Shown: positions 16,679-33,447 of the stretch, piece by piece | How positions within the stretch are numbered: the first letter of the stretch is position 1 | Layout: every line of letters begins with the position of its first letter | Assembly: GCA_944373065.1 (NCBI GenBank) | Contig: CALWAJ010000002.1 | Coordinates: forward strand, 1-46,567 | DNA from: an uncultured Bacilli bacterium | Lineage (GTDB): Bacteria > Bacillota_I > Bacilli_A > RF39 > UBA660 | Direction: 5' to 3' | DNA length: 46,567 nt | Position numbers and translations under genes: made by a program | The notes under the pieces: generated by a model | What the model saw: the letters and a program-made list of their open reading frames with translations, nothing else | Database searches by the model: none | What the model was told of the DNA's origin: nothing

Positions 16679-19369
16679 ATGAGATATATGACTAGTAATG
16701 AGATTAGAAAGATGTGGGTTAAGTACTTTGAAGAACATGGGCATAAATATGTTAAATCAGCTCCCTTAATCCCAATCAATGACGATTCACTTCTTTGGAT
16801 TAATGCTGGAGTTACCCCTTTAAAAAAATATTTTGATGGAAGTGTTACTCCTGAATCTAGAAGAATTGTAAATATTCAAAAATGTATTAGAACTAATGAT
16901 ATAGAAAATGTAGGTATTACTAAAAGACATCAGACTTTCTTTGAAATGATGGGTAACTTTTCTATTGGTGATTACTTTAAAGATGAAGCGATAGAATTTG
17001 CCTATGAACTTTTAACAAGTAAAGATTGGTTTGCTATTCCTAAAGAGAAGCTTTATGTAACAGTATATATCAATGATACTGATGCTTATAACAAATGGCT
17101 AGAAGTAGGTATGGATGAGTCACACATTATAAAACTAGAAGGAAACTTTTGGGAAATAGGAGAAGGTCCATGTGGTCCAGATAGTGAGATATTCTTTGAT
17201 CAAGGTGAAAAATTAGATCCTGATGGTACTGCTTGGGAAAAATTCATTAATGATGAAGACCAAGATCGCTATGTAGAAATTTGGAACAACGTTTTCAGTC
17301 AATATAATTCTAAACCTGGTGTTCCTCGTGAAAAATATAAAGAACTACCTCATAAAAATATTGATACTGGAGCAGGACTTGAAAGATGGGCATGTATTTT
17401 TCAAGGAGTTGACTCTAATTTTGAAACTGACCTTTTCAAACCTATTATTGAAAAAATAGAAGAACTAAGTGGAGTTTTATATAATGGTGAAACAGCCTTT
17501 AAAGTTATTGCCGACCATATGAAAGCTGTAACATTCGCTATTGCAGATGGTGCTAGTTTTGGCAATACAGGACGTGATTATGTCTTAAGAAGATTAGTAA
17601 GACGTAGTGTTAGATTTGGAAGAACTCTAGGTTTCAAAGAACCTTTCCTTTACAAACTAGTACCTACTATTGTCATGGTTATGGGAGATGCTTATCCTGA
17701 ACTTAAGACTAACTCTGGAGAAATAGCTGTTTATATTCTTGATGAAGAAAAATTATTCTTTAATACTCTAGAAGATGGAGAACGTCGTCTAAAAGAAATA
17801 ATGAAAGATGATAACGATAAAGTGATAAGCGGTTATGATGCTTTTAAACTATACGATACTTTTGGTTTTCCTTTTGAACTTACAGAAGAAATAGCTAAAG
17901 AAAATGGTTATACAGTGAATTTAGAAGAATTTAATGATTATATGAATAAACAAAAAGAACTAGCTAAGAAAAATGCTCGTACTAAAACTGCTATGGCTAG
18001 TCAAAAGAAAGTATTAATGGAATTTACTAAAAGCTCTACCTTTGTCTATGGTTTATATCGTCTAAAAAGCAGTGTTCTTGCAATTGTTTCTAAAGACAAG
18101 TTAGAAAAGACTCTAGATCATGATGGTTATATTATCTTAAAAAGAACATGTTTCTATTCAGAGTCTGGTGGTCAAGTATCAGATACAGGTATGATTGTTG
18201 GTAAAAGCTTTAAAGCAAGAGTTGTTGATGTCTTTAAAGGTCCTAATGGTCAACATATTCATAAAATTAAACTATTAGATGGTAAAATTACTGTTAACGA
18301 TGAAGTTGAAGTAATTATCGATAAACAAAGAAGAAAAGAAATAGAAGCTAATCACTCTAGTGTTCATATCTTACAATATGCACTACAACAAGTAGTTGAT
18401 AAAAATATTAGACAGGCAGGTAGTTATGTTGATGAATTCAAACTAAGATTTGACTTTACTTGTCCATCTAAAATAAGTGATGAAGAAATCGTTAAAACAG
18501 AAGAACTAGTTAATAAAATTATTAAAAAAGGTGTTATTACTTCTACAGAGACTATGCCAATTGACAAAGCTAAAGAACTTGGGGCTATGGCTTTATTTGG
18601 TGAAAAATATGGTGAGACTGTTAGAGTAGTTAAAATTGATAAGTCAATCGAACTATGTGGTGGTACACATGTTGCCAACACTAAAGACATTAAACGTTTC
18701 GCTATCTTTAATTTTGAATCTAAAGGAAGTAACACCTATAGAATAGAAGCAGTTACTAATGATAGATTAGAAAATACATTATTTGAAGTTATTAAGCCAT
18801 ATAACGATGAAATGGTTAAACTATTAATAAAAGCTAAAGAGATACTTGCTTTAGCAACTAAACAAGGTATTAAATTAGATTTTGATGTAGATATCGATAA
18901 TACTGCACCAACTTCTTATAAAGACATAGTCTTTAATCAAAATGAACTTAGTTATATTCAAAGCGAAGTTAAAACCTTAGAAAAAACATATAACAATGAA
19001 TTAGAAAAATTAACTCTTAATAACTTAGATATATACTTAGATAGAGTTAAAGAAATAAACGGTAAGAAATTCTTATACTTAGAACTAGATAATATTGCTA
19101 TGTTCTTAGTTAAAGCTATGGCTGATGATTTATGTAATAAATTTGATCATGTCTTAATCTTTATCGCTAATATAAAAGAAGATAACAGCGTTAACTTTAT
19201 CTGTCGAAGTTCTCTAGATGATATAAATGCCGGTCTTCTTGTTAAAAGTGCTACCACTTCTTATGAAGGAAATGGTGGTGGAAGTGCTACTTTTGCCCAA
19301 GGTGGTATTAAGAATAAAAAACATCTTAAAGAAATCAAAAAAGAAATTGAGGCTTTACTAAATGAATAA
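16679..19369 (+). CDS. alaS: alanine--tRNA ligase
   Basis: Class II AlaRS N-terminus (FFEMMGNFSIGDYFK), editing-domain HSSVHIL and CGGTHV motifs, and a C-terminal GNGGGSATFAQGG segment. AAGGAG SD lies 9 nt upstream of ATG 16679. Confidence 0.95.
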   Translation: MRYMTSNEIRKMWVKYFEEHGHKYVKSAPLIPINDDSLLWINAGVTPLKKYFDGSVTPESRRIVNIQKCIRTNDIENVGITKRHQTFFEMMGNFSIGDYFKDEAIEFAYELLTSKDWFAIPKEKLYVTVYINDTDAYNKWLEVGMDESHIIKLEGNFWEIGEGPCGPDSEIFFDQGEKLDPDGTAWEKFINDEDQDRYVEIWNNVFSQYNSKPGVPREKYKELPHKNIDTGAGLERWACIFQGVDSNFETDLFKPIIEKIEELSGVLYNGETAFKVIADHMKAVTFAIADGASFGNTGRDYVLRRLVRRSVRFGRTLGFKEPFLYKLVPTIVMVMGDAYPELKTNSGEIAVYILDEEKLFFNTLEDGERRLKEIMKDDNDKVISGYDAFKLYDTFGFPFELTEEIAKENGYTVNLEEFNDYMNKQKELAKKNARTKTAMASQKKVLMEFTKSSTFVYGLYRLKSSVLAIVSKDKLEKTLDHDGYIILKRTCFYSESGGQVSDTGMIVGKSFKARVVDVFKGPNGQHIHKIKLLDGKITVNDEVEVIIDKQRRKEIEANHSSVHILQYALQQVVDKNIRQAGSYVDEFKLRFDFTCPSKISDEEIVKTEELVNKIIKKGVITSTETMPIDKAKELGAMALFGEKYGETVRVVKIDKSIELCGGTHVANTKDIKRFAIFNFESKGSNTYRIEAVTNDRLENTLFEVIKPYNDEMVKLLIKAKEILALATKQGIKLDFDVDIDNTAPTSYKDIVFNQNELSYIQSEVKTLEKTYNNELEKLTLNNLDIYLDRVKEINGKKFLYLELDNIAMFLVKAMADDLCNKFDHVLIFIANIKEDNSVNFICRSSLDDINAGLLVKSATTSYEGNGGGSATFAQGGIKNKKHLKEIKKEIEALLNE

Positions 19370-20273
19370 CTACATCTTAATAAGTGATAGTAAAACCTTA
19401 ATAGATAAAAAAATAGAGGAACTTATTAATAACGGCTTTAAAGATGCCATAGTTACTCATTATGACTTAGAAGAGAATAGTATCAACTCCTTAATAGAAG
19501 ATGCTGATACTATTTCTTTTCTTTCCCCTAATAAAGTAATTATAGGAGATAATTTCAATACTAATAATAGCTTAGATTCACTATTAAAATATCTAGATAA
19601 TCCTAATAATGACGTTCTCTTAATTTTAACTACCAAAAAATTAGATGAAAGAAAAAAAGAAATAAAAACACTTATGAAAAAATCTAATTATCTAAAATTA
19701 GAAGTTAGTCCTAAAAATATCTTAGATATGGAATTTAATGGCTATAAAGTAGATTTTAAAATTCTTAGACTCTTAGAAGAATATTATAAAAGTGATAATG
19801 AAAGACTAATAAGTGAATGTCAAAAATTAAAATTAGCATTCCTAGAAAGTAAGAATATTACTTATAAAGAAGCAAAAGAACTATTAGTTAAGCCTCTTAA
19901 TGATCAAGACAATCTTTCCTTTTCTTTAGTTAGAAATATTGCTATTAAAGATAAGAAAAATGCACTCTTAAATTATCAAGAACTTCTAAATTATAATATT
20001 GAATTTTTTACTATTATGGGGCTTTTAGAAAGTCAGTACCGTTTATTATATCAAGTAATGATTTTATCTAAACAAAATATCTCTTATAATGATATGGCTA
20101 AAATATTAGATGTTCATCCTTTTAGAGTTAAGAAAACTTTAGAATTACTTAGTTATTATACTAAAAAAGAGCTAACTAAAATCATTAAAAATTTAGCATC
20201 GCTTGACTATAAAGTTAAAAGTGGAGAAATGGATAAAGATTTAATAATAGACTTGTTAATTTTAAATAATTGA
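19362..20273 (+). CDS. holA: DNA polymerase III delta subunit
   Basis: KLDERKK and VHPFRVKK...LDYKVKSGEMDKDL segments follow the Bacillus HolA (YqeN) pattern. Overlaps the alaS stop by 8 nt. Confidence 0.85.
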   Translation: MNNYILISDSKTLIDKKIEELINNGFKDAIVTHYDLEENSINSLIEDADTISFLSPNKVIIGDNFNTNNSLDSLLKYLDNPNNDVLLILTTKKLDERKKEIKTLMKKSNYLKLEVSPKNILDMEFNGYKVDFKILRLLEEYYKSDNERLISECQKLKLAFLESKNITYKEAKELLVKPLNDQDNLSFSLVRNIAIKDKKNALLNYQELLNYNIEFFTIMGLLESQYRLLYQVMILSKQNISYNDMAKILDVHPFRVKKTLELLSYYTKKELTKIIKNLASLDYKVKSGEMDKDLIIDLLILNN

Positions 20274-20289
20274 CTAAAGTCTATTTTTT

Positions 20290-20298
20290 TGGTATAAT
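20290..20298 (+). promoter_or_regulatory. TG-extended -10 box (tggtataat)
   Basis: Located 28 nt upstream of ATG 20326 and followed by an AGAGGGGG SD. Confidence 0.5.
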
Positions 20299-20325
20299 AC
20301 GGCTACTTACAGAGGGGGTATTTAT

Positions 20326-21597
20326 ATGAAATGCGATTTAAGTTTTGATCAAATAATATTATTGCTAGAACAAGCTACTACTAAGGAAGAATTATTATTA
20401 ATTAAGTGGAAATATAATAGATATTTATCATCAGCACACAAATCTATAGAATTTCAAGAAAAGTTTAATAAGTACTTTGATATGCTTGCTTTAAAAGAAG
20501 CGAAAAATAATAAGAAGGATATTGTCTTAAGTTTAGTTAAAACCTATAAAATTAATGGTGATATATATAAAGAAGCCTTAAATAAAGCTGAAGAATATAA
20601 TATTGGTATTTACAATATTCTAGATTTATTAAACTTACTATTTAAAAGTAAAAACTTTACTAGCAAAGAATTATATATAATAAGCAATATAAAACAAGAA
20701 ATAGAACATAAATTAATTATTTCCCGTAATTTAAAAGAAATGGATACAGACTATGTTATTGCTAAAACAATTTTAAACATGTTCTTATCTTATGGAGTTA
20801 TAGAGTTAAAAGAATTTAGAAGCAAAACTAACTGTACAACTTCTGCTTTTGATAATGCTTTAAATATATTAAATAATAGAAATCATCCTTTATATTTGCA
20901 ATACATCGATATAAAAGAAAAGAAGTTTAAAGAAAAAGTTGCTTTTAGAAGAGAAATAAAAGAAGATGCCTTTCAAGCAGAAAGAAGAAAAATGATTGAA
21001 AAAATAACATCTGCTAATGGAAAAGAAATATGTGAAATATTGTCAGATATCAATAAGTATCATAATGAATATGCTATTTTTTGTGAAGTGTATGACTTAA
21101 ATAAATTCTTCTTAACAAAACTAATAAGAAGATTTCCTAAAACTATTTTAGAACTTACTAGTGATTTAAGTAATCTAAAAAATGTTTATAACGAATATAA
21201 AGCTAGATATTTATTATTGATTGATAAAGTAATAGAAGAAATAAACGAAGCTAAACTAACTGGAGTGCCTTTTGATTTATATCATTATTATTTAGAAAAC
21301 AGCATTCCAATTGAAGAATTAGAGTATATTGCCAAAGAATTAAAAGAGCAAGATAAAGATATAATTCAACAATATATAATGAGTAACTATAAGCTGTTAA
21401 AAGGTTATGGTAAAAAAGAAATAGACATTGTAAGAGATAGAAAAATACTTACTTGTGATAACGCAACGATAAATTTCACAAGAGAAGAACTTGATAATGC
21501 TTTAGAAGATATTGAAACTAATAATTTACCTTTATATAAAGGAATTCTATATGGAGCTATAAAAGAACAAAAAAGTAAAACTAAAAGAAAGGCTTAA
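20326..21597 (+). CDS. hypothetical protein (423 aa); C-terminal domain shared with the product of 39362..41110
   Basis: Long ORF with a strong SD and helical-looking composition. The C-terminal ~110 aa (VPFDLYHYYL ... NNLPLYKGILYGAI) is colinear with RPFEILDYFL ... NNIPLYTKVYKQAL of the 582-aa protein. Confidence 0.7.
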   Translation: MKCDLSFDQIILLLEQATTKEELLLIKWKYNRYLSSAHKSIEFQEKFNKYFDMLALKEAKNNKKDIVLSLVKTYKINGDIYKEALNKAEEYNIGIYNILDLLNLLFKSKNFTSKELYIISNIKQEIEHKLIISRNLKEMDTDYVIAKTILNMFLSYGVIELKEFRSKTNCTTSAFDNALNILNNRNHPLYLQYIDIKEKKFKEKVAFRREIKEDAFQAERRKMIEKITSANGKEICEILSDINKYHNEYAIFCEVYDLNKFFLTKLIRRFPKTILELTSDLSNLKNVYNEYKARYLLLIDKVIEEINEAKLTGVPFDLYHYYLENSIPIEELEYIAKELKEQDKDIIQQYIMSNYKLLKGYGKKEIDIVRDRKILTCDNATINFTREELDNALEDIETNNLPLYKGILYGAIKEQKSKTKRKA

Positions 21598-21602
21598 GAA
21601 TA

Positions 21603-22949
21603 ATGCATGATTTCGTTAATGAATTAAATAAAATAATGGCTATTAGAAGTATTATTATAGATAAATCTAAGAAAAATATGTCTTTAAAAGAAGCTATATA
21701 TTTTTCTTTAGAATATCAAAAACACATATATAGTGATGTTGCTTCAAAATTATATGAAATAGAAGAGGCTATGTTTGAAAATCATGATAATGGTAATTTG
21801 TTTATCAATGATAATGGCGGTTTTGATTTAGAATATAGAAATGCTGAAAACGATATTATAAAAATAAAATTTTGTATAACAGGACACGATGGTGAAAAAG
21901 CCGAAGTAATGATTATTTGTCCTGAAAACGGAAAAGAATTAATAAATAGAATTAAATTTTATGCTAATATGTATTATAAAGATTTCATGAAAATAGAAGA
22001 AACAAATAATGAAAATAAAAATATAACGTTCTTTGATAAAAACTATGATACCTTACAATTTCCCTTCATAACAAAAAAAGAAAACGATAATTACAATTTT
22101 AAAGTTAATTTAGAAATACATGATAATATATTAATTTTTAAAGCTCAAATTATAAATAAAGAAGATGATATTAGCTGTATTACAATTAAATATGATAATG
22201 TCAAAATGAATTATTTTGAATGTACTTATCAATATTCCTATATTTTCGATGGTAAAATATGGACGCAATCTCTAAATCAAGAAGAAATAAGCTATATTCT
22301 AAATAACTTATATATTCCTACTAATTATTTTGAAAATTATATATTAAGTTATATGGGTGAAAGAGCTAGAATTAGGAAAAACTATATAGAAAGAAAAGAA
22401 GAACCCGAAATTGCTGAAATTAGTGATTTAAGGAAATCTATAATTAGCGAAAAAATAAATAAGAATAAAGAATTAATAGATGAATTAATAAAAGAAAATC
22501 AAGAATTAGCTGAACAATTAAAAATTAAAATGCCTATTTTAAGGGAAGAGTTATTAGATGAAATAAATGATAATTATTATATTATTAAAGATAAATATAA
22601 AAATGTCTTAAGTGATTATGATTTATCTAAAATATCATTTGATAACGTAGATATAAGAGGAATAGACTTTAGAGGAACAAATATTAATAGTAGTTTATTT
22701 GATTTACAAAAAGTTCATAATAAATATGCCTCAGACTGTAACTTTTCAACAGATGAAGATAATGTTAAAGATTATATTTTTGGCTATGATACAGATTTTA
22801 CTGGTGTAAATTTAAGTGGAACAGATATGAATAATCCATATCCTATTCTTTTAAATTCTACTATTAATAAAGCCTATATTGATGAATTTACAATTTTACC
22901 TGGATTCTATCAAGATAAAGTTAAAAAGAAAACTTTGTTTATGTCTTAA
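21603..22949 (+). CDS. pentapeptide-repeat protein, paralog 1 (divergent N-domain + coiled coil + pentapeptide C-domain)
   Basis: C-terminus DLSKISFDNVDIRGIDFRGTNINSSLFDL ... DFTGVNLSGTDMNN has the pentapeptide periodicity. It is preceded by a heptad-like NKELIDELIKENQELAEQLK segment. Confidence 0.75.
   Translation: MHDFVNELNKIMAIRSIIIDKSKKNMSLKEAIYFSLEYQKHIYSDVASKLYEIEEAMFENHDNGNLFINDNGGFDLEYRNAENDIIKIKFCITGHDGEKAEVMIICPENGKELINRIKFYANMYYKDFMKIEETNNENKNITFFDKNYDTLQFPFITKKENDNYNFKVNLEIHDNILIFKAQIINKEDDISCITIKYDNVKMNYFECTYQYSYIFDGKIWTQSLNQEEISYILNNLYIPTNYFENYILSYMGERARIRKNYIERKEEPEIAEISDLRKSIISEKINKNKELIDELIKENQELAEQLKIKMPILREELLDEINDNYYIIKDKYKNVLSDYDLSKISFDNVDIRGIDFRGTNINSSLFDLQKVHNKYASDCNFSTDEDNVKDYIFGYDTDFTGVNLSGTDMNNPYPILLNSTINKAYIDEFTILPGFYQDKVKKKTLFMS
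22617..22931 (+). repeat. Near-identical 315-bp block, copy 1 (3' end of paralog 1)
   Basis: By-eye alignment with 24154-24468 shows about 14 mismatches and no indels. Identity falls sharply upstream of the block. Confidence 0.85.
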
Positions 22950-22995
22950 GTAGATTACCCTACATTATATTTATTATTGCAATTATATATTTTTT

Positions 22996-23004
22996 TGATA
23001 TAAT
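22996..23004 (+). promoter_or_regulatory. TG-extended -10 box (tgatataat) with possible TTGCAA -35
   Basis: tgatataat at 22996-23004; TTGCAA at 22977-22982 with a 16-nt spacer. Confidence 0.5.
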
Positions 23005-23028
23005 AAACCATACTGGCAGGTGGCAGGA

Positions 23029-24480
23029 ATGGAAAATAATTATTTAAAAAAAACATTAAGGGAATTAAAAAAAACAATTTTAAAAGAAAAAGCCTTTAGA
23101 GATTTCTTTAATTTTGAAGATAAAATTAATTTAATTAAATTAAACGATCTTTATAGTAATTGTTTATATAGTATTTCTAAAGATATATTAGATGAAAAGA
23201 AAGTTTTAGAAAAAGAATTAAGTACATTAAATAACAAGAAAATCAGTATAGATTTTTCTTGTTATGTTCAACATTACGTTTCTGGAAATAAAGAATTAGA
23301 AATTAACTTAAACTACCAAAAAGATTATTTTTGCAATTTAACGGTAAGCGACTCTTCTCCTATAGCATTTGAAATTTATGATGATAAAGAAAAAAAATAT
23401 TATATTACCTGGTCTCCTGACTATGAATCTAGAATTAAGGATATAGATGAAGAAATTCATAGAAAAATAGTTAATTTAGGAGTTAAAATTAAATTTTTTC
23501 TCGACAGCACAGAAGAATTTACATATTATTACGTTACAAAACATATAGATGATAATATTGACTATAATATTAAGATTAAATTTCAGCACTATATACTAAC
23601 AGATGAAAATAAAAAAATTGAATATTTTAATAAATATATGATTAAAATAAAATTTTTTAATATAAAACATGAAGATGCATTTTCAAAAAAAGAACCATTG
23701 TTAAGATTTAATGAAGAGAGTATTATTTTAGAATTTGATATAGAAAAAAATTATTTAACAGGAAAGTATATCTATTCTAAAAACGGATCTGGAAGTATAT
23801 ATGGACATATAGATGAAAAAATTGAAATTAAAAATATGGACATACTCTATAGCCTATTACATTTAATAAAAATACCAAAAAAAGATTTACCTAATATACT
23901 TTTAGAGCAATCAGAAAGTAGTTTAATAGAAGAAATGACTTCTGAAGAAGATAATTTGGAAAATCAATTAATTGAAAAAGAAATAGAAGAAAACAATAAA
24001 AAGATTGAAGAACTTTTTTCTAAGAACAAAGAATTAATGGAAAAATTACATAGACGTTTACCAATTTTATCTACACAATTATTTAAAGAAGTAGAAAAAA
24101 ATGGTGAAAAATATTATATTATAAATTATGAATATAAATATATCTTACGAAACTATGATTTATCTAAAATATCGTTTGATAACGTAGATATAAGAGGAAT
24201 AGATTTTAGAGGGACAAATATTAATAGTAGTTTATTTGATTTACAAAAAGTTCATAATAAAGATGCTTCAAACTGTAACTTTTCAACAGATGAAGATAAT
24301 GCTAAAGATTATATTTTTGGCTATGATACAGATTTTACTGGTGTAAATTTAAGCGGAACAGATATGAGTAATCCATATCCTATTCTTTTAAACTCTACTA
24401 TTAATAAAGCATATATTGATGAATTTACAATTTTACCAGAATTTTATCAAGATAAAGTTAAAAAGAAATCTCTATGGTAA
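23029..24480 (+). CDS. pentapeptide-repeat protein, paralog 2
   Basis: Same architecture as 21603..22949. Start set to ATG 23029, 7 nt after AGGTGG. The C-terminal ~105 aa are nearly identical to paralog 1. Confidence 0.75.
   Translation: MENNYLKKTLRELKKTILKEKAFRDFFNFEDKINLIKLNDLYSNCLYSISKDILDEKKVLEKELSTLNNKKISIDFSCYVQHYVSGNKELEINLNYQKDYFCNLTVSDSSPIAFEIYDDKEKKYYITWSPDYESRIKDIDEEIHRKIVNLGVKIKFFLDSTEEFTYYYVTKHIDDNIDYNIKIKFQHYILTDENKKIEYFNKYMIKIKFFNIKHEDAFSKKEPLLRFNEESIILEFDIEKNYLTGKYIYSKNGSGSIYGHIDEKIEIKNMDILYSLLHLIKIPKKDLPNILLEQSESSLIEEMTSEEDNLENQLIEKEIEENNKKIEELFSKNKELMEKLHRRLPILSTQLFKEVEKNGEKYYIINYEYKYILRNYDLSKISFDNVDIRGIDFRGTNINSSLFDLQKVHNKDASNCNFSTDEDNAKDYIFGYDTDFTGVNLSGTDMSNPYPILLNSTINKAYIDEFTILPEFYQDKVKKKSLW
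24154..24468 (+). repeat. Near-identical 315-bp block, copy 2 (3' end of paralog 2)
   Basis: Partner of 22617-22931. Confidence 0.85.
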
Positions 24481-24493
24481 ACTTTAATATATT

Positions 24494-24502
24494 TGATATA
24501 AT
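24494..24502 (+). promoter_or_regulatory. TG-extended -10 box (tgatataat)
   Basis: Same nonamer as at 22996-23004. Lies 14 nt after the stop of paralog 2 and 22 nt before ATG 24524. Confidence 0.45.
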
Positions 24503-24523
24503 ATATTAAAGAGGATGATAACA

Positions 24524-24811
24524 ATGAATAATAAAGTGATTAAAACAAGCCAAGGAACTTTTCCAATATCCGTTTTAGAAAAAGATATGTATGATGTGAA
24601 TCTTCCAGAATATCTTGATAACGATATAAAAGCTTTACTAAAAGGCATTAAAGAAGATAGTAATCTACTAGATTGTTTAATGTATGAAGTGTATAGTTCG
24701 ATAAATATTGCTTATTTTGAAAATGAAATTAGTGAAAAACATGCTAATCATCTAAGAGAAAAGTATTTATTAATGAGCTGTAAAGTAAGAGGTGACAAAG
24801 ATGCTAAATAA
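24524..24811 (+). CDS. hypothetical 95-aa protein, overlapping partner of the HipA-type kinase gene
   Basis: Start set to ATG 24524, 9 nt after AAAGAGG. The stop TAA 24809-24811 overlaps the kinase start by 11 nt. No HTH or other motif recognised. Confidence 0.6.
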   Translation: MNNKVIKTSQGTFPISVLEKDMYDVNLPEYLDNDIKALLKGIKEDSNLLDCLMYEVYSSINIAYFENEISEKHANHLREKYLLMSCKVRGDKDAK

Positions 24812-25703
24812 TTTTAATAATTACAAAATAAATAAATTTAAATATTATGATGGTAGAAACGGTAATAAAATCTGCCTTGAAGATGAGTTTGGAACAAAAT
24901 ATATGTTAAAAACACCTCCAGTAAAAAATGAAAAAGATGAAAATAAATATTATACTAATGGTTGTATTTCTGAACATATAGGATGTCTAATATATAAATC
25001 ATTAGGATTTAAAACTCAAGAAACTAAATTGGGTCTTTATAACATCAACGGAAAAAATAAATTATGTGTTTTATGTAAAGATTTTGAAATAAATAATAAA
25101 AAACTCTTTAAATTTGCTGAAATTAAAAATAGTATAATCTCATCAAGTGAAAACGGCTTTGGAGTAGAATTATCTAGTGTATTAGAAGCTATAGAAGAAC
25201 AAAGTAATATTGATCCTATAAAATTAAAAGAATTTTATTTTGATATGTTCATTGTTGATGCTTTTCTTGGAAATTTTGACCGCCATAATGGTAATTGGGG
25301 ATTATTATTAGATGATATTAATAAAACTAGTGAAATCGCTCCTATTTATGATTGTGGCAGTTGTCTATATCCAGCACTTGATGATGAAAAGATAAAAGAA
25401 ATTCTAAGCAATCCTGAAGAAATTGAAGCAAGGATTTATATTTTTCCTAATTCGATTTTAAAAATTAATGGTCAAAAAATCAATTATTTTGAATATATCA
25501 GCTCTCTTAAAAATAAAGACTGTAATGAAGCGTTAAAAAGAATTGGTAGAAAGATAAACTTAGATAAAATTAATAAAATTATTGATGGAATAGAAGAAAT
25601 ATCTGATATAAGAAAAGAATTTTATAAAACTATACTAAATTTACGCAAAGAAAAAATTATAGATTATTCACTAAATTTATTATCTGAAAAAGAAGAATTT
25701 TAA
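24801..25703 (+). CDS. HipA_C-type Ser/Thr kinase lacking the HipA N-terminal domain
   Basis: Catalytic loop FLGNFDRHNGNWG and Mg-binding-like APIYDCGS match the HipA C-terminal kinase core. ATP-site-like GTKYMLK lies near the N-terminus. At 300 aa it is much shorter than the ~440 aa of canonical HipA. ATG 24801 lies 9 nt after AAGAGG. Confidence 0.75.
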   Translation: MLNNFNNYKINKFKYYDGRNGNKICLEDEFGTKYMLKTPPVKNEKDENKYYTNGCISEHIGCLIYKSLGFKTQETKLGLYNINGKNKLCVLCKDFEINNKKLFKFAEIKNSIISSSENGFGVELSSVLEAIEEQSNIDPIKLKEFYFDMFIVDAFLGNFDRHNGNWGLLLDDINKTSEIAPIYDCGSCLYPALDDEKIKEILSNPEEIEARIYIFPNSILKINGQKINYFEYISSLKNKDCNEALKRIGRKINLDKINKIIDGIEEISDIRKEFYKTILNLRKEKIIDYSLNLLSEKEEF

Positions 25704-26917
25704 GAATCCTTCTTTAATTTTTCTAAATATAAATATATCTCTTTTAATTTAGATTCATAACCTAAATTTTTAGGATGATAATATTTCTTATCTTTTAATT
25801 TATCAGGCAAATACTGTTGTCTAACAAAAGCATTTTTATAATCATGAGGATATTTATAAGTATTAGATGGATTCTTTAAGTGCTTTGGAATATCACCGAC
25901 ATTTCCTTTTTCTATATCACTTAAAGCTTCATCTAAAGCTATATGAGCAGTATTACTTTTAGGAGACAAAGCCATCTCTGTAACAATTGTTCCAAGAGGA
26001 ATTCTAGCTTCCGGTAATCCCACTAACTTAGCCGCTTCAATTGCAGACATTACTTTAGGACCAATAGAAGGATTAGCAAGACCTATATCTTCATAAGCAA
26101 TAACTGCCATTCGTCTAAAAACACTATCTAAATCACCAATCGTAATTAATCTTGCTAAATAATGTAAGCTTGCATCGACATCACTACCTCTAATAGACTT
26201 TTGAAAAGCTGATAACATATCATAATAAGCATCACCATTTTTATCTGCAAAGAAAACAGGCTTAGTATTTATCTTTTTTACAACTTCTAAATCTACTTTA
26301 AAATCGCTAGTAGAAAAGTAAGATATTTCTAAAAGATTATAAGCAAATCTTAAGTCATTTCCCGATATATTAGCAATATACTTAATAGTTTCCTCATCTA
26401 TTTTAATATTAGGTAAATAAGGACTTTTAATCGCTCTTTTTAAACCTTCAACGATATCTTCAGTTTCTAGCTCTTTAAGTTCAAATAATTGACATCTTGA
26501 TCTAATAGCAGGATTAATTGCATGATATGGATTACTAGTAGTCATCCCTATTAAAGTAATAAGGCCACTTTCTAACTGTGGTAATAAAATATCTTGTTTA
26601 TCTTTATTTAGTCTGTGTATTTCATCCATAACTAAAACTAAACCATCATACATTTTCGCCTCTTCAATAACAATATCTAAATCTTTTTTAGAATTAACTG
26701 TAGCATTTAAAAATCTATGTCTAATACCCAAATCATTAATCATAGCATTTGCAATAGAAGTTTTACCAATTCCGGGCTTACCATATAAAATCATCGAAAA
26801 CAACTTCTTATTCTTAACAAGATTGCTAAGAATCATATTATCTCCAATTAAATGTTTTTGTCCAAGAACTTCATTTAAATGCTTTGGAGCCATTTTTAAC
26901 GCTAAAGGCTTATCCAT
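25700..26917 (-). CDS. rarA: replication-associated recombination protein A (AAA+ ATPase)
   Basis: Walker A GKPGIGKTS, Walker B LVLVMDEIHR, and the MgsA C-terminal domain (YYDMLSAFQKSIRGSD, PKHLKN, YKYPHDY). Confidence 0.9.
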   Translation of the reverse strand: MDKPLALKMAPKHLNEVLGQKHLIGDNMILSNLVKNKKLFSMILYGKPGIGKTSIANAMINDLGIRHRFLNATVNSKKDLDIVIEEAKMYDGLVLVMDEIHRLNKDKQDILLPQLESGLITLIGMTTSNPYHAINPAIRSRCQLFELKELETEDIVEGLKRAIKSPYLPNIKIDEETIKYIANISGNDLRFAYNLLEISYFSTSDFKVDLEVVKKINTKPVFFADKNGDAYYDMLSAFQKSIRGSDVDASLHYLARLITIGDLDSVFRRMAVIAYEDIGLANPSIGPKVMSAIEAAKLVGLPEARIPLGTIVTEMALSPKSNTAHIALDEALSDIEKGNVGDIPKHLKNPSNTYKYPHDYKNAFVRQQYLPDKLKDKKYYHPKNLGYESKLKEIYLYLEKLKKDS

Positions 26918-27007: not shown

Positions 27008-27973
27008 ATGGAATATAAAAACGAATTAGAAGGATATTGTAAAGAATATAAAAATTTAACAACTTTATTAAAAGTAGATGAAAATAGTTTAGAAGGAATT
27101 AAAGAAAACTTAAGAAAAACTAGAGCTGGGTCTTTCTTTTTAAGCTTAAATGAAAATCAAAGAGTTGAGTTTTCTACAATTTATAAAGATAGTAATATTG
27201 ATAACTATATCTTGAAAGAAGAAAGCATTAAAAAGGAAAAAGAGGAAAAAAGGCAATTAATACAAAAGATATTATCGTGCCAAGAATTTCCATTTTCTAA
27301 AGATGATGAACATATATTTATAAAAAGTGGCAACGAACTATATAATGCCGTAACCGCTGAAAGCACTGAGTCTATTAAAAATGACGATATAAAAAAAGTT
27401 ATTATTGATGTAGTTGGAGAAAGTTATAGTATAAGTAAATTTAACTATTTTGATATACCATTAATTAAAGTACTTTATGAAAGGTATAAAAGATATAATC
27501 AAACAGAAAACAGCAAAGAATTAGAGTTAATTATAATAGAAAAAGCTAGTCAAATTTTATATAATGAGAAAAAAGAGGAAAAAAGAACACCACTTATACC
27601 TGATGAAGAATATAATAAGTTAAAAGAAGAATTGTTTACTAAGATAACAGACTTAGAATATGGTAATATTACTTTTACTCCTGAAAATAAAAAGCTAGTT
27701 GAAGAAATGCTTTATACTGCCAAATTCGAAATTGAACTACTTCATGGAAAAAGTATTGAAGAGTTAATTGATTATACTAGAAGTTCTGTTACAAAAGATA
27801 ACTACGAACGAGAAATAACTTATTTAGCAAAAGCATGCTATAACTTAACTAATCAAAATTTTGTTTATGATTGTACATATCCTAATACTTTTGATTTATG
27901 GAATAAAACTGATATGTTCGAAACAAGTAATCGTGTAATTAATCAAAAAATACTTGAAATGAAGAAAAGATAG
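27008..27973 (+). CDS. hypothetical protein (321 aa); N-terminal ~100 aa paralogous to 27980..28393
   Basis: AAGGAGGG SD. The first ~100 residues align without gaps to the next gene's product (L7, Y10, KEY12-14, AG40-41, L45, L47, F55, IY58-59, D61, Y67, FPF). Confidence 0.7.
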   Translation: MEYKNELEGYCKEYKNLTTLLKVDENSLEGIKENLRKTRAGSFFLSLNENQRVEFSTIYKDSNIDNYILKEESIKKEKEEKRQLIQKILSCQEFPFSKDDEHIFIKSGNELYNAVTAESTESIKNDDIKKVIIDVVGESYSISKFNYFDIPLIKVLYERYKRYNQTENSKELELIIIEKASQILYNEKKEEKRTPLIPDEEYNKLKEELFTKITDLEYGNITFTPENKKLVEEMLYTAKFEIELLHGKSIEELIDYTRSSVTKDNYEREITYLAKACYNLTNQNFVYDCTYPNTFDLWNKTDMFETSNRVINQKILEMKKR

Positions 27974-27979
27974 AGTTTT

Positions 27980-28393
27980 ATGATAAACGAAACAAAATTA
28001 AGAGAATATTATAAAGAGTATCTTTTAATAGAAAAAATTATAGCAGAAAGAGAAACAAAAAGAGATAAATTATATAATATTTTTAAAGAAAGTAAAGCCG
28101 GGAAACTTTACTTAAGATTAAGTGAAGAAGAACAACAAACTTTTGAATATATTTATACCGATGCAACATATCAACAATATTTATTTTATGAAAAGCAAGT
28201 AACTGAATTCAAAGAGGCAAGGAATAAATTATTATTAAATATTTCTCAAGATAGGGAAGTTTTTCCGTTTAAACAAAATGAGATACTTGAATCATTAAAT
28301 ATTTCTGATGATTTAAAAGAATTTATGCAAATGATAACTTTGAAAATCAACAATACAAATAATAATTATAAATTTAATAAAAATAAATTATGA
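27980..28393 (+). CDS. hypothetical protein (137 aa), paralog of the N-terminus of 27008..27973
   Basis: Starts 6 nt after the upstream stop. Colinear conserved positions are listed under 27008..27973. Confidence 0.65.
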   Translation: MINETKLREYYKEYLLIEKIIAERETKRDKLYNIFKESKAGKLYLRLSEEEQQTFEYIYTDATYQQYLFYEKQVTEFKEARNKLLLNISQDREVFPFKQNEILESLNISDDLKEFMQMITLKINNTNNNYKFNKNKL

Positions 28394-28408
28394 AAGAGAG
28401 TGATAATT

Positions 28409-28579
28409 ATGCAAACTAACAATTTAAAAATATATCCTATGAGTTATAGATACACTATGAATGGTTTTAACTTAGCAGTAGATAATAAAGTTCTTCCTTT
28501 AACTTATAGATATAAGCAAAGAGGATTTAATCATGTAAATATTGTAAACGATACTGAAATAAAAAATAGAAAGAAGTAG
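28409..28579 (+). CDS. small ORF (56 aa) with an internal repeat, not in the ORF track
   Basis: MQTNNLKIYPMSYRYTMNGFNLAVDNKVLPLTYRYKQRGFNHVNIVNDTEIKNRKK. Two copies of P-(M/L)-(S/T)-Y-R-Y-x-x-x-G-F-N lie 20 residues apart. Starts 15 nt after the previous stop and ends 3 nt before the mutS ATG. The SD is weak (AGAGAG). Confidence 0.4.
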   Translation: MQTNNLKIYPMSYRYTMNGFNLAVDNKVLPLTYRYKQRGFNHVNIVNDTEIKNRKK

Positions 28580-28582
28580 TAT

Positions 28583-31153
28583 ATGAAGAGAAGTGAAGTA
28601 GATAGAGATAAAATAAGCCCAATGATGAGGCAATATTTAGACATAAAAGATAAGTATGAAGATACTATTATCTTTTTTAGACTTGGGGATTTTTATGAGA
28701 TGTTCTTTGAGGATGCTATAACCGCTTCTCATGAATTAGAATTAACTTTAACAGGAAGAAATGCTGGACTTGAAGAGCGAGTTCCTATGTGTGGCATTCC
28801 TTTTAAAGCATATGAAGGATATCTAGATAAACTAATAGATAAAGGTTATAAAGTAGCAATAGTAGAGCAATTAGAAGATCCTAAGACTACTAAAGATATG
28901 GTAAAAAGGGATGTTATTCAAGTTGTTACTAAAGGGACGAGATTAGATACCTCTATTAATGCTAAAGACAATAATTTTATCGCTTCCATCTATGATTTAG
29001 GATATTGTTATGTCATATCATATTCTGATATATCAACAGGAGAAATATATGTATCATTAGAAGAAGGAGACAAGGACACTTTACTAAGAGATATTTTAAG
29101 ACATAACTTTAGTGAAATAATTGTTAATGATAAGATAGATAGAGAACTTGTTAATACTCTTAGAACAACATATCATTTAAATGTTACAATTTATGATGAA
29201 CTATATGAAGGTAGTGCCTACAATTATGTTTATAAAAATTTAAAAGATATAAGAGAAGAAACAGGTATTAAACATTTACTTGCCTATTTAACAAATACCA
29301 AAAAAGGAGATTTATCTCATCTAGGAGAAGCGAAAAAAGAAAACACCAAAGACCATCTTTTAATAGATAATAATACTAAAAGAAACTTAGAACTTACTGA
29401 GACAGTAAGATTAAGAGAAAGGACTTATAGTCTATTATGGCTTTTAGATAAAAATAAAACTGCAATGGGTAGTAGATTACTAAAACAAAACATAGAAAGC
29501 CCTTTAACTAATAAAAAAGAAATAGAAAAGCGTTATGATTTTGTAGATAAATTAAGAGTTGAATTTATATTAAGAGATGATTTAAAAAATAACTTAAACG
29601 AGGTCTATGATTTAGAAAGACTCGCATCAAGAATTACTTATGGTAATTTAAATGCCAGAGATTTATTACAACTTAAAAGCAGTTTAAAAGTATTGCCTGA
29701 AATTAAAAAAATATTAAAAGAACTTAACTATTATAAAGAAATAGAAGACTTTCCTGAAGTTTATAGTTTACTTGATAAAAGTATTATTGAAGATCCGCCT
29801 ATAACTTTAAAAGAAGGCCATTTAATAAAAGATGGCTATAACGAAGAATTAGATGAATTAAGAAAAATATCCAGTGGTTCAAAAGATTTTATCTTAGAAC
29901 TTGAACAAAAAGAGAAAGATAGAACTGGTATTAAAAATCTAAAAGTAGGATTTAATAAAGTCTTTGGTTATTATATTGAAATTAGTAAAGGACAGGTTAA
30001 AGAATTAAAAGAAGAATATGGCTATGAAAGAAAACAGACATTATCTAACTGTGAAAGATTTATTACACCTTTACTAAAAGAAAAAGAAAATATTATCTTA
30101 GGTGCAGAAGAGAAGATTATCAACTTAGAATATGATTTATTCATGAAAATAAGAGAAACTATCAAACGTTACATTCACCCCTTACAAAAGACTGCAAATG
30201 TTATTGCCGAAGTTGATATGCTACAAGCATTTTCTACAGTTTCTGATATGTATAATTTTGTTAGACCAACGATAACTGATAATCACTCTGTTAAAATAAT
30301 TGCTTCACGCCATCCTGTTATAGAAGAAGTAATGGCTCACGAAGATAAAAAATATGTCTCCAACGATATAATTATGGATGAAGACACTAGTATTCTCTTA
30401 ATAACAGGGCCAAATATGGCTGGTAAATCAACATATATGCGACAATTTGCTATTACAGTTATTATGGCTCAAATAGGTTGTTTTGTGCCTGCTAAAAGCT
30501 GTTCTATGCCAATATTTGATAAAATATTTACAAGAATAGGAGCGAGTGATGACCTTGTTAGTGGAGAATCAACTTTTATGGTAGAAATGAAAGAAGCTAA
30601 TCTTGCCTTAGAAAATGCTACTAAAAACAGTTTAATTCTTTTTGATGAATTAGGTAGAGGAACTGCTACTTATGATGGAATGAGTTTAGCACAAGCAATA
30701 CTAGAATATATTCATGATAAAATAGGGGCAAAAACAATGTTTTCTACCCATTATCATGAATTAACCGATTTATCCAATAGTCTAAAACATTTACAAAATG
30801 TCCACGTTTCAGCTGTTGAGGAAGATGGCAAGCTAACATTTTTACACAAAATAAAATTAGGCGCCGTTGATAAAAGTTATGGTCTTAATGTTGCAAGTCT
30901 TGCCCATTTACCAGAATCATTAATCAAACGAGCTGAAGAGATACTTAATATCTATGAAAGTGAAGGTACCAAAGAAAAACAATTTACTCAAACTAGTCTG
31001 TTTAGTTTAGATGAGCCAGAAATAAAAGAAGAAGAAAAGAAAAATGAAATAGAAGAAACGATTAAAGAAGTAGATCCATTAAATATGACACCGATTAATG
31101 CCTTAAACTTCTTATATGAATTAAAAGAAAAAATCAGAAATGAGGAAAAATAG
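28583..31153 (+). CDS. mutS: DNA mismatch repair protein MutS
   Basis: Mismatch-recognition GDFYEMF (Phe-X-Glu), Walker A GPNMAGKST, Walker B LILFDELGRGT, and STHYHEL. Confidence 0.95.
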   Translation: MKRSEVDRDKISPMMRQYLDIKDKYEDTIIFFRLGDFYEMFFEDAITASHELELTLTGRNAGLEERVPMCGIPFKAYEGYLDKLIDKGYKVAIVEQLEDPKTTKDMVKRDVIQVVTKGTRLDTSINAKDNNFIASIYDLGYCYVISYSDISTGEIYVSLEEGDKDTLLRDILRHNFSEIIVNDKIDRELVNTLRTTYHLNVTIYDELYEGSAYNYVYKNLKDIREETGIKHLLAYLTNTKKGDLSHLGEAKKENTKDHLLIDNNTKRNLELTETVRLRERTYSLLWLLDKNKTAMGSRLLKQNIESPLTNKKEIEKRYDFVDKLRVEFILRDDLKNNLNEVYDLERLASRITYGNLNARDLLQLKSSLKVLPEIKKILKELNYYKEIEDFPEVYSLLDKSIIEDPPITLKEGHLIKDGYNEELDELRKISSGSKDFILELEQKEKDRTGIKNLKVGFNKVFGYYIEISKGQVKELKEEYGYERKQTLSNCERFITPLLKEKENIILGAEEKIINLEYDLFMKIRETIKRYIHPLQKTANVIAEVDMLQAFSTVSDMYNFVRPTITDNHSVKIIASRHPVIEEVMAHEDKKYVSNDIIMDEDTSILLITGPNMAGKSTYMRQFAITVIMAQIGCFVPAKSCSMPIFDKIFTRIGASDDLVSGESTFMVEMKEANLALENATKNSLILFDELGRGTATYDGMSLAQAILEYIHDKIGAKTMFSTHYHELTDLSNSLKHLQNVHVSAVEEDGKLTFLHKIKLGAVDKSYGLNVASLAHLPESLIKRAEEILNIYESEGTKEKQFTQTSLFSLDEPEIKEEEKKNEIEETIKEVDPLNMTPINALNFLYELKEKIRNEEK

Positions 31154-31155
31154 TT

Positions 31156-32007
31156 ATGAGATATGATGATTTAATGATTTTAGAAGGAATGTTTATTGAT
31201 GTTACAAGAGAAGATGTTAAAGATGTAATAAGAACAGAATTAGGAGAAAATATAAGTTATTGCATAGAAACATTTGATTTTGAAAATAAAAAAATAAAAT
31301 TAAAAAAAGATGAAACAGATGAAAGTTATGAGATAGTACCTATAAAAAGAGATGATGCAACTTTAGGAATAAATATTAAAAGGGTAAAGAAAGAAGAAAA
31401 TGGTGAGAAATTTAGTTTATCTAAAAATATTGTCTATACAGGTAAAGAAAAGAAAGGTGTTGTTGTTTCAACTTTAGAAACAGTAGAAACTAAAGATTAT
31501 ACTATATTTTTTGAAAATACTAAAAATATAATAAAAAATGAACATGGTACTTATATAAAAGATCAAGAGAGTCTTGGATTATGGGTTTATGACAATAAAA
31601 TTTTACAAAATGAGAATAATAAATATTTTGGTATTTTTGAAGATACAACTTGTTATGGCCAATTTAATTATCATGAAAGATTATCCCAAATAGAAAAAAC
31701 TATAAATAAAAATTATTTATTACCAGATTATATTACTAAAATAGAAACAGAACTTAATGAACATGAAAAAATGGTTGGGACTATTTATATTAATTATTTA
31801 ATTAATTATTTAGAAGCTATTGAATATGAAAATGATGATATGTTCTATTTTGACCATTCGAGATGGAAACGTGATATTTATAGTGATATAGAAAATTATG
31901 TTGAAGAAATGAAAAAACTTCTATCACTAGAGACAAGTTTTGATGGTACAGAAAAAAGAATATATGATTACAGAGTAAGCGGACAACAAAAAACAAAACA
32001 AATATAG
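31156..32007 (+). CDS. hypothetical protein (283 aa) occupying the position usually held by mutL
   Basis: ATG lies 2 nt after the mutS stop, with GAGGA 9 nt upstream. No GHKL ATPase motifs. The first 12 nt (atgagatatgat, MRYD) are identical to the start of 32105..32872. Confidence 0.7.
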   Translation: MRYDDLMILEGMFIDVTREDVKDVIRTELGENISYCIETFDFENKKIKLKKDETDESYEIVPIKRDDATLGINIKRVKKEENGEKFSLSKNIVYTGKEKKGVVVSTLETVETKDYTIFFENTKNIIKNEHGTYIKDQESLGLWVYDNKILQNENNKYFGIFEDTTCYGQFNYHERLSQIEKTINKNYLLPDYITKIETELNEHEKMVGTIYINYLINYLEAIEYENDDMFYFDHSRWKRDIYSDIENYVEEMKKLLSLETSFDGTEKRIYDYRVSGQQKTKQI

Positions 32008-32104
32008 ATATAAACAAATTATAGATAAATTATTTATTAGCTTTAAGAAAATTTATTCCAATAATTTTAAAATTAAATAAAGATTAAAAAAATAGGTGAT
32101 TATA

Positions 32105-32872
32105 ATGAGATATGATTTATTACAATTAATAAAAGATAGAGTACCTTTATTAGATAAAAATTTTTTAGCAAGTAATTTAATAGAATCTTTTCTAAAAGAA
32201 AGCTGCAATTCTAAAATTAAAAACAATATAAAAGAGAAACGAATAGATTTAGACGATAATGTTACTATAATTACTGATGGCAATAATATTATAATTGATA
32301 AATCAAATGAAGATGCTTTTGAAGGAGAAAAGATAAAAGTTACACTTTTAGATAATAATGATGAATTTATCTTTTCATACTATAACTATGCCAAAAAAGA
32401 ACATATTAACATGTTACAAAGTTATAGATTGTCATTTACAAAATATGATATAGAAGTAGCAGATATTAGTGAATGGATTTATAGAAATGATGTACCTAAA
32501 ATAGAAGAGTATATTGATACTGTCATTATAAATTCAAACAATATTAGTACTGGAGATTATTATAATTATCTAAAGCTATATATAGTAGATGAATATTATG
32601 AGGAAGAAAGAATTTTACCAGATTATTATAGAACAATGCGTATAAATAAAAAATTAAATGAATTTTCTTTAAATATTAACGGAAAACTTACCAAATATAA
32701 TTATGATAATGATATTTTAGGATCACTTATATTCTTTAACGATTTAGAAAAAGATTGCCTTGATACAAAAACTAAAAAAAATTTATTAAAGATAAAAAAT
32801 GTCCTAGAAAAAAGCTCTTTTAAGGGAAGACAATATATAAAATTATTTGAAATAAAAAGGGATGAAAACTAA
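32105..32872 (+). CDS. hypothetical protein (255 aa)
   Basis: Start set to ATG 32105, after TAGGTGA. Begins MRYD like the previous gene. Contains ILPDYY, compared with LLPDYI in the previous product. Confidence 0.65.
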   Translation: MRYDLLQLIKDRVPLLDKNFLASNLIESFLKESCNSKIKNNIKEKRIDLDDNVTIITDGNNIIIDKSNEDAFEGEKIKVTLLDNNDEFIFSYYNYAKKEHINMLQSYRLSFTKYDIEVADISEWIYRNDVPKIEEYIDTVIINSNNISTGDYYNYLKLYIVDEYYEEERILPDYYRTMRINKKLNEFSLNINGKLTKYNYDNDILGSLIFFNDLEKDCLDTKTKKNLLKIKNVLEKSSFKGRQYIKLFEIKRDEN

Positions 32873-33387
32873 TGAATTATGTTCTTATATACAAAGATAA
32901 TAAAAACTATATAAATTATTATTACAATTTTACTGATAATTTAGTTTATACAAGTAATGCCAAAAACAATAACTGTAATCTTTTAGGAATGATAGGAATA
33001 ATCATTGGCTTTATTTTCTATCTTCTTATCGCTACTATTAGTTACTATATACCATATTCTTATCTATTTATAATTATAATTGGTATTATCTTTGGCCTTA
33101 CTATAACTTTTATCGCTAATAGAACTATAACTGATATCTTTAAAAGTAAAGGTAAAAATATCTCAAAAAAAGACTTAAAAGATATGTATATGAAAAACAA
33201 ATCATTTAGAATAAAATATTTTATTTTAACATTATCTTTCTTTATTCTTTCGATATTATCTCTAATCTTATACAAAAATACACTTGCAATTAATTTTATA
33301 ACATTTACAAGTATCATTATGACAACATTTTTATTGTTTCTGTATAGGCCTATAAACAATTATAAATTTTTAAAACTTATAAAATAG
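32872..33387 (+). CDS. hypothetical membrane protein (171 aa)
   Basis: TAATG stop/start overlap with the previous gene. About four hydrophobic helices. Confidence 0.6.
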   Translation: MNYVLIYKDNKNYINYYYNFTDNLVYTSNAKNNNCNLLGMIGIIIGFIFYLLIATISYYIPYSYLFIIIIGIIFGLTITFIANRTITDIFKSKGKNISKKDLKDMYMKNKSFRIKYFILTLSFFILSILSLILYKNTLAINFITFTSIIMTTFLLFLYRPINNYKFLKLIK

Positions 33388-33393
33388 AATAAT

Positions 33394-33422
33394 TTGACAA
33401 AATACCAAATTAGGTATATAAT
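33394..33422 (+). promoter_or_regulatory. Consensus sigma-A-type promoter
   Basis: TTGACA (33394-33399), a 17-nt spacer, then TATAAT (33417-33422). Lies 25 nt upstream of GTG 33448. Confidence 0.75.
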
Positions 33423-33447
33423 TTAATACACAAAAGGGGGAATATGT

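Follow-up and report, generated by a model that had tools for sequence, protein, structure and literature searches.

Why should two neighbouring genes encode proteins whose first parts have no detectable similarity and whose last hundred or so residues are almost the same? This question is raised by genes A and B, two open reading frames (ORFs) in tandem on the plus strand of contig CALWAJ010000002.1, within a stretch of 46,567 nucleotides (nt) that was analysed as a whole and is called the window here. Each gene encodes a head, a coiled-coil linker and a tail (Table 1). The explanation that fits best overall, and that is held with good though not full confidence, is that A and B are old tandem paralogs coding for modular proteins, whose last ~360 base pairs (bp) have been kept alike by selection together with gene conversion. 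The window strain was compared with further loci or strains, designated by L-numbers; all the sequences come from metagenome assemblies, and only contigs were compared.

Regarding the shared segment, an ungapped comparison of 22617-22931 with 24154-24468 (offset 1537) gave 14 mismatches in 315 positions, that is 95.6% identity without any indel, exactly the number that the original prediction had estimated by eye; an independent repeat search recovered the same direct pair (22555-22854 and 24092-24391, 91% identity, spacing 1537). The change in identity along the genes is as abrupt as had been proposed: a maximum-chi-square scan of the codon-aware A/B alignment placed the change point at 22575 (~24112 in B) with a chi2 of 198, a value as high as which occurred in 0 of 1000 permutations. 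The p-distance between the genes was 0.504 to the left of this point and 0.079 to its right, and a breakpoint scan restricted to linker and tail gave a chi2 of 103 (0/1000 permutations). In the codon alignment, nucleotide identity falls into three levels, ~45-55% in the heads, 50-65% in the linker and 92-97% in the tail, and it stops at the stop codons, the 3' flanks being unrelated.

The value for the heads is background for such a composition, and no significant similarity between the A head and the B head was detected by BLASTP, by a head-only phmmer search of all against all, or by profile-profile comparison with hhalign; BLASTP of A against B aligned only residues 262-446 of A with residues 295-486 of B, at 68% identity. 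The loose similarity that had been described for the N-terminal ~330 amino acids (aa) therefore holds for the coiled-coil linker, where ~70 aa are 40-45% identical between the two proteins, and not for the heads proper (A aa 1-261, B aa 1-~295). Homology of the heads is suggested by a shared order of secondary structures, by a few invariant columns ahead of the linker, and by full-length profile matches to the proteins P0015-P0017 only.

As for the cause of the identity, evidence comes from divergence at synonymous sites (dS), which was estimated, like its ratio to nonsynonymous divergence (dN/dS), by the Nei-Gojobori method. Between A and B, dS was 1.19-1.25 in the head and 1.10 in the linker; in the tail it was 0.17 in the window, 0.13 in L007 and 0.31 in L001, and the contrast between linker and tail in synonymous differences had a Fisher p of 2.5e-5. 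The orthologous tails of the window strain and L001 had a dS of 0.19 (A) and 0.34 (B), matching their heads (0.21 for A and 0.13 for B) and the neighbouring genes (0.006-0.29), so the low A-B value in the tail does not stem from a constraint on synonymous sites.

The pattern of variation among strains leads to the same conclusion. In a set of 12 tail alleles, with 68 of 315 sites polymorphic, there were 10 polymorphisms shared by the two paralogs and not one fixed difference between them, and 55 of the 171 pairs of informative sites were incompatible by the four-gamete test. The tails group by strain lineage, not by paralog: 9-14 differences separate A from B within the window's clade, 21-31 separate these tails from those of L001, and 33-34 separate them from the B tail of the sister species (L016), which is equidistant from the two tails of the window (34 from A, 33 from B). 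Quartet sites preferred the pairing of the two window tails over the grouping by orthology, by 5:0 and 7:1, and patches with the states of the other paralog were recognised, A-like in the B gene of L003 and B-like in the A genes of L003, L017 and L001. The original prediction had offered gene conversion and a recent partial duplication as alternative causes; the collapse of dS in the tail, the lack of fixed differences, the shared polymorphisms and the clustering by lineage favour the former, while a single recent duplication fits less well with the absence of fixed differences, the shared polymorphisms and the four-gamete failures.

The same repeat appears to have served for a rearrangement. 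Two contigs from different studies, L014 (34-2293) and L015 (5-2274), are 99.96% identical and contain the end of gene U, a decayed A head in three ORFs (72, 76 and 279 aa), one tail with a B-type 3' end, and then the genes S and H; they have no B head and lack exactly one repeat period (1.5 kb). This single gene, an A head fused to a tail, looks like the product expected of unequal crossing-over between the two tails.

Gene A has suffered in other strains as well: in L003 (4576-5921) and L004 (499-1844) its reading frame is broken by the deletion of 1 bp within the linker, leaving pieces of 335 and 40 aa, in L001 (4565-6001) the loss of the stop codon lengthens its product by 30 hydrophobic residues, with A now running up to the start of B, and the sister species has no gene A. 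From the frameshift, the stop loss and the absence, A is taken to be dispensable. Between the window strain and L001 it is uniform, with 93-95% identity all along and a head dN/dS of 0.17.

Gene B varies in a different manner, since its head carries two hypervariable cassettes (HV1 and HV2 in Table 1). The B gene of the window is identical to that of L003 over nt 1-420 and to that of L001 over nt 420-870, and is 51-88% identical to each in the other cassette. HV1 of the window is 100% identical to that of L003 and 61-70% identical to that of L001 where most variable, with a dS between allele types of 0.55-0.86; HV2 is 100% identical to that of L001 and 51-88% identical to that of L003, with a dS between allele types of 0.57-0.92 and a dN/dS of ~0.45. 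The flanks of the cassettes have a dS of 0-0.1, and this difference indicates that both cassettes are old and reassort.

The whole locus, 16679-25703, is itself a recombination mosaic between strains when compared with L001, L003 and L007; between the window strain and L001, dS is 0.006 for holA, 0-0.02 for S and H, 0.29 for U and 0.15 for alaS, and the pattern is the opposite against L003 and L007.

Selection acts on the tail too. Its dN/dS is 0.12-0.28, and it retains ~80% protein identity to P0011, a homologue from an outgroup species in which gene U has only 30%. The view that a constant tail module accompanies diversifying heads, which was part of the original prediction, is borne out by this dN/dS, by the two reassorted cassettes in the B head and by the at least 32 unrelated clusters of heads in the wider family described below. 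Recurrent ectopic gene conversion and strong purifying selection both act on the tail, which is neither an artefact nor the outcome of a single duplication.

Several points qualify this reading. Purifying selection contributes as much as conversion does; the excess of shared polymorphisms is modest for each codon position (p 0.047, 0.053 and 0.15; 2e-4 when pooled), and the quartet counts are small, with 0-7 sites each. The donor of a converted tract may be the sister gene of the same cell or incoming DNA of another strain, two sources that are indistinguishable in a locus that is a mosaic throughout. Besides the fact that metagenome contigs were the sole material, the fusion haplotype comes from contigs of low coverage (one of 2.7x), in which an assembler jump across the repeat is possible in principle.

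Other accounts of the near-identical block are to be considered. One recent event, a partial duplication or domain replacement that put the tail of one gene on the other and was followed by ordinary divergence, would produce the abrupt 5' breakpoint and the 3' end at the stop codon, and with 14 differences between the window tails the last exchange in this strain would not be very recent. If that event had preceded the split of the strains, the A tails and B tails should form two clades with fixed differences, which are not seen; if it had taken place in one strain, the tails of other strains should be diverged, whereas all strains with two copies have similar ones. The lack of fixed differences, together with an A-B tail distance that ranges from 9 to 29 among strains, means that a single replacement, ancient or recent, does not explain the tails; the shared polymorphisms, the patchy mosaic tracts and the four-gamete failures tell against it as well, making this account improbable. 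An assembly artefact, namely a repeat that was collapsed or duplicated, or contigs joined into a chimera, deserves next to no credit. It could be suspected because the window and all its relatives are metagenome contigs and because Logan unitigs break inside the block, a behaviour expected of a k=31 graph. However, 14 sites tell the copies apart, and no exact run common to both exceeds ~50 bp, which is below read length and final k-mers; a Logan contig of run X2 covers both copies; and the two-gene arrangement, with variants proper to each tail and a copy spacing of 1528-1538 bp, was obtained again in over 10 contigs, by several assemblers and in four studies or more, including one metagenome-assembled genome from NCBI. 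Every locus of the same species that is long enough contains both genes, in each case with their separate heads.

Purifying selection on its own, with constrained tails that never diverged after an old duplication and never exchanged DNA, agrees with the low dN/dS of the tail and with long runs of residues that neither the distant P0011 nor the family at large has altered. Selection on a protein cannot hold synonymous sites, though, and whereas the linker beside the tail has an A-B dS of 1.1, the tail itself has one of 0.13-0.31, even though orthologous tails gain synonymous changes at the normal rate (0.19-0.34); as fixed differences are missing and the tails cluster by lineage, selection alone is a very improbable explanation. 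Finally, the block might be conserved as DNA or RNA, for instance as a promoter within the coding region or as a structured RNA, in either case for the benefit of the gene that follows, given that the next gene begins 35-80 bp past each tail and that promoter-like motifs occur near both; but those motifs lie outside the block, in spacers that are not homologous, the block has no match to an Rfam family, and its synonymous sites vary freely between strains, so that there is extremely little to recommend this alternative.

The sequence of events that best accounts for the locus, selection and conversion acting jointly on two old paralogs, is as follows. A and B descend from an old tandem duplication, and the ~110-aa tail that both encode is under strong purifying selection. 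The tails, 1,537 bp apart and in direct orientation, undergo recurrent ectopic homologous recombination, with conversion tracts bounded on the 5' side near 22575/24112 and on the 3' side at the stop codons; unequal crossing-over over the same repeat would also leave a single A-head::tail fusion gene. Heads and linkers, being outside the tract, have diverged to saturation, and the hypervariable cassettes of the B head are traded between strains by homologous recombination. The products of A and B would be soluble proteins of the cytoplasm, built from modules: the head, beta-rich and variable, would be followed by a coiled coil that serves oligomerisation, by a conserved hinge motif and, at the end, by a short beta-helix of pentapeptide repeats that is constant. 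Most likely the constant tail contacts one shared partner or gives one shared output, with the heads supplying differing specificities, and homogenisation of the tails would keep both paralogs compatible with that partner.

By its sequence, the tail is predicted to be a pentapeptide repeat. The Pfam family PF00805 matched A with 22.4 bits and B with 23.3 bits against a cut-off of 20.2, marginal scores, with no more than 14-15 residues in the best stretch. The sequence keeps a five-residue register with a recurrent hydrophobic residue over ~9 + 3 units (VDIRG, IDFRG, TNINS, TDFTG and VNLSG are examples), and the repeat region, which is interrupted, spans ~90 residues or roughly 4 coils. A profile of the module, A3, matched designed repeat proteins based on Np275/276 at E 2e-5 and had weak matches to Np275-276, Alr5209, MfpA, Qnr and Rfr. 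Positions 44-106 of this profile also had a weak match (E 0.11) to PDB 9NYI, "HalA in complex with oligodeoxyadenylate", probably a generic similarity between repeats.

AlphaFold2 models built from a family alignment of 8 sequences had a mean predicted local distance difference test score (pLDDT) of 39.5 for A and 44.6 for B, with ~30 for the tail in both; a Foldseek search of the PDB with the low-confidence B model found nothing at E <= 0.001, and the full-length family profile compared with solved structures returned coiled-coil noise only. There is no hydrophobic segment in A or B, the maximum Kyte-Doolittle value over 19 residues being 0.7-0.9, and for this reason the proteins are considered soluble and cytoplasmic.

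Relatives of A and B are rare. Close ones formed only 11 clusters among 5.8 billion proteins, and a word-indexed protein search with the module alignment retrieved 7 proteins; an exhaustive profile search over 1.84 billion representatives reached 132 at E <= 1e-3, the majority with a match confined to linker and tail. The consensus of the module is LF..VDDH.EI..Y..L..DLS.ISFDNVDVRGIDF..TN..NPQ.VYNKDLS.C.F...TDFTGVNL.G...A.IDE.T.LP, and in 117 of 129 clusters it lies at most 60 aa from the C-terminus, behind 2-756 residues. The 69 heads of at least 120 aa fell into 32 clusters without mutual similarity, the largest consisting of WG-repeat heads; as read from these matches, one C-terminal module is joined to at least 32 unrelated kinds of head. 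A second tandem pair exists in an unrelated genome, L022 (5813-8498), where a protein of 390 aa with a head is followed by a headless one of 171 aa.

Two further relatives have unusual layouts. P0012 (229 aa, on a contig of 1.8 kb) has a different N-terminus, which we take, by eye, to resemble a phage tape-measure protein, on a linker and tail of the sister-species type, and may be either a chimeric assembly or a real exchange of heads; P0084 (861 aa) contains two C-terminal modules in one protein.

The function of these proteins can be approached from their architecture, which suggests the split between specificity and effector parts that the original prediction had proposed. The leading guess, a tentative and rather doubtful one, is that A and B act as variable intracellular recognition or immunity factors. 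A more elaborate form of it is clearly unlikely: proteins with a head, a coiled coil, a hinge and a short pentapeptide beta-helix would make up an unrecognised cytoplasmic family of recognition or immunity proteins of low-G+C Firmicutes, in which cassette-swapping heads sense invaders or ligands and the converted constant tail plugs the paralogs into one effector or target, such as the adjacent CtkA/HipA-like kinase or, through DNA mimicry, a DNA enzyme.

Several results lend such a role no support. No relatives were found in viral contigs, phage genomes, plasmids or JGI metagenome contigs; PADLOC, NCBIfam and PHROGs had no match for A or B, nor for U and S, and in PADLOC-DB v2, with its models of known and candidate defence systems, these four gave none at E <= 0.1; a search of the literature on pentapeptide-repeat defence proteins yielded nothing relevant. 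The family gene also occurs without S and H (in L019 and in L005/L006), and a rarA fragment lies between them in L020; a functional link with the kinase encoded by H is thus not supported. In L022, an orphan protein of 300 aa downstream of the pair was considered as a HipA-type kinase on account of a D-x-H-x-x-N motif noticed by eye, and was rejected for want of support from PADLOC, Pfam or the PDB; with it, the idea of a conserved linkage between the family and a kinase was dropped.

As regards the setting, the window has a G+C content of 25%, and the sequencing runs that contain its sequence are mostly chicken-gut metagenomes; the host is an uncultured Bacilli bacterium of the chicken gut, with a chromosome of ~1.5 Mb and 25% G+C, and A and B are chromosomal. 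The local order is alaS (16679-19369), holA, U, A, B, S, H and rarA (on the minus strand), with mutS further on (Table 1). A starts 6 nt past the stop codon of U, and the start of B is most probably the ATG at 23029 rather than the GTG at 23020, with AGGTGG 6 nt upstream of the ATG. Neither a tRNA nor an Rfam element was found in the window. A region of the core genome (window 27008-34224 and 36279-36938) contains many ORFs of 130-320 aa without any Pfam match (seven of ten scanned), interspersed with recognisable genes such as mutS, nusB, xseA and spoIIM; the host proteome is poorly covered by current families.

Table 1. Features of the locus that contains genes A and B, in positions of the window (RBS, ribosome-binding site)
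Feature	Positions	Strand	Remarks
Gene U, 423 aa	20326..21597	+	Between holA and rarA, beside family gene(s)
Paralog A, 448 aa: head aa 1-261, coiled-coil linker aa 262-338, predicted pentapeptide-repeat tail aa 339-448	21603..22949	+	
High-identity block, copy 1 (A tail); core of the original prediction 22617-22931	22575..22934	+	92% across ~360 bp, 95.6% in the core of 315 bp
Promoter-like site TTGCAA-16-TATAAT (TG extended -10) within the spacer of 79 bp between A and B; the RBS AGGTGG lies after it	22977..23004	+	Consensus match only
Paralog B, 483 aa: head aa 1-~295, coiled-coil linker aa ~296-375, predicted pentapeptide-repeat tail aa 376-483	23029..24480	+	
Hypervariable cassette HV1 of B, codons ~66-140	23224..23448	+	From strain comparison
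Hypervariable cassette HV2 of B, codons ~145-300	23459..23929	+	From strain comparison
High-identity block, copy 2 (B tail); core of the original prediction 24154-24468	24112..24471	+	
Small ORF S, 95 aa from ATG 24524 (98 aa from 24515), overlapping the start of H	24524..24811	+	Neighbour, not shown as part of the A/B unit
Gene H, CtkA/HipA-like Ser/Thr kinase, 300 aa	24801..25703	+	Neighbour, separable from the family gene in other lineages

Gene U is the sole constant neighbour and is always found in the holA-rarA interval with the family gene or genes; its orthologues occur in 4 lineages, down to 30% identity, and it has no match in Pfam, NCBIfam or PADLOC. The product of H is close to the Helicobacter pylori kinase CtkA (PDB 3AKJ, E 5.9e-77) and to the PADLOC phage-defence candidate PDC-M03A (2.7e-32), and reaches 26.2 bits with Pfam HipA_C, under the cut-off of 30.5; S has no relatives in any family library searched. 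S and H could be a toxin/antitoxin-like or a defence pair. Their assignment to the HipBST/HipA toxin-antitoxin systems was rejected, given the sub-threshold HipA_C score, an E of only 0.89 with HipT (7AB3) and the lack of any match for S.

A promoter-like extended -10 site precedes U (20270-20298), and the motif TTTG(G/A)TATAAT occurs upstream of U (20282-20299), B (22988-23005) and S (~24491-24501); these consensus matches suggest that U-A, B and S-H may each have a promoter of their own.

In the sister species, the single B-type gene has a duplicated 3' fragment of rarA upstream (a 96-aa ORF, on the minus strand at 6764-7051 of L019 and 6761-7051 of L020, with its counterpart at 25700-25966 of the window) and a remnant of S followed by the full rarA downstream. 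The order in L020 is U-S-H-rarA'-B-S'-rarA, and L019 has neither S nor H. The segment with B and rarA is 93% identical between these two loci, and alaS/holA only 80%, which suggests that the segment may have been exchanged recently between lineages.

The evolutionary mechanism at this locus is already known, while the protein family is uncharacterised and new. Domain-restricted concerted evolution is a textbook process, documented here with unusual completeness by the limits of the tract, polymorphisms common to both paralogs, a fusion haplotype and cassettes that reassort; in addition, an uncharacterised, purely C-terminal pentapeptide module combined with dozens of heads has been marked out. 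The identity profile shows which part of the protein has to remain constant and which parts are free, or driven, to vary, and so gives a rational start for a search for partners of the module. Should the family prove to be a system of immunity or recognition, the tail would offer a handle for pull-downs, with the heads as the determinants of specificity.

Among known systems, defence and polymorphic proteins with a variable sensor and a constant output resemble A and B in having one C-terminal module on at least 32 kinds of head, tandem paralogs and hypervariable cassettes, and, like defence proteins with swapped recognition parts, A and B lie in a variable chromosomal interval beside a candidate defence kinase. 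They match no model of a known defence system, however, have no recognisable effector chemistry and lack a conserved linkage with the kinase; the likeness concerns a possible mode of action and not membership. With pentapeptide-repeat proteins (PF00805; Np275/Np276, Rfr, MfpA, Qnr), the tail shares the five-residue register with its central hydrophobic residue, although in A and B the repeat is only ~90 aa long and comes after a large head and a coiled coil. Qnr and MfpA, topoisomerase protectors, are beta-helices of ~180-220 aa throughout, dimerise by way of the C-terminus and bind gyrase as mimics of DNA; A and B do not have this architecture, since the repeat makes up just ~90 aa at the end of proteins of 448 and 483 aa.

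The closest parallel in evolutionary mechanics, and in these only, is offered by the M and M-like proteins of Streptococcus pyogenes. M proteins are secreted virulence factors anchored to the cell wall by LPXTG ends, whereas A and B lack a signal peptide and an anchor, are unrelated to them in sequence and have a predicted pentapeptide repeat as the conserved end. As in A and B, the M and M-like genes are adjacent direct paralogs that encode a coiled coil and whose 5' parts are hypervariable, their 3' parts conserved. In the mrp-emm-enn cluster, recombination takes place between the paralogs, and an emm-enn fusion gene has arisen by loss of the intervening DNA (PMC6321872, PMC9993116, PMC6952200), an event to which the fusion in L014 and L015 is the counterpart.

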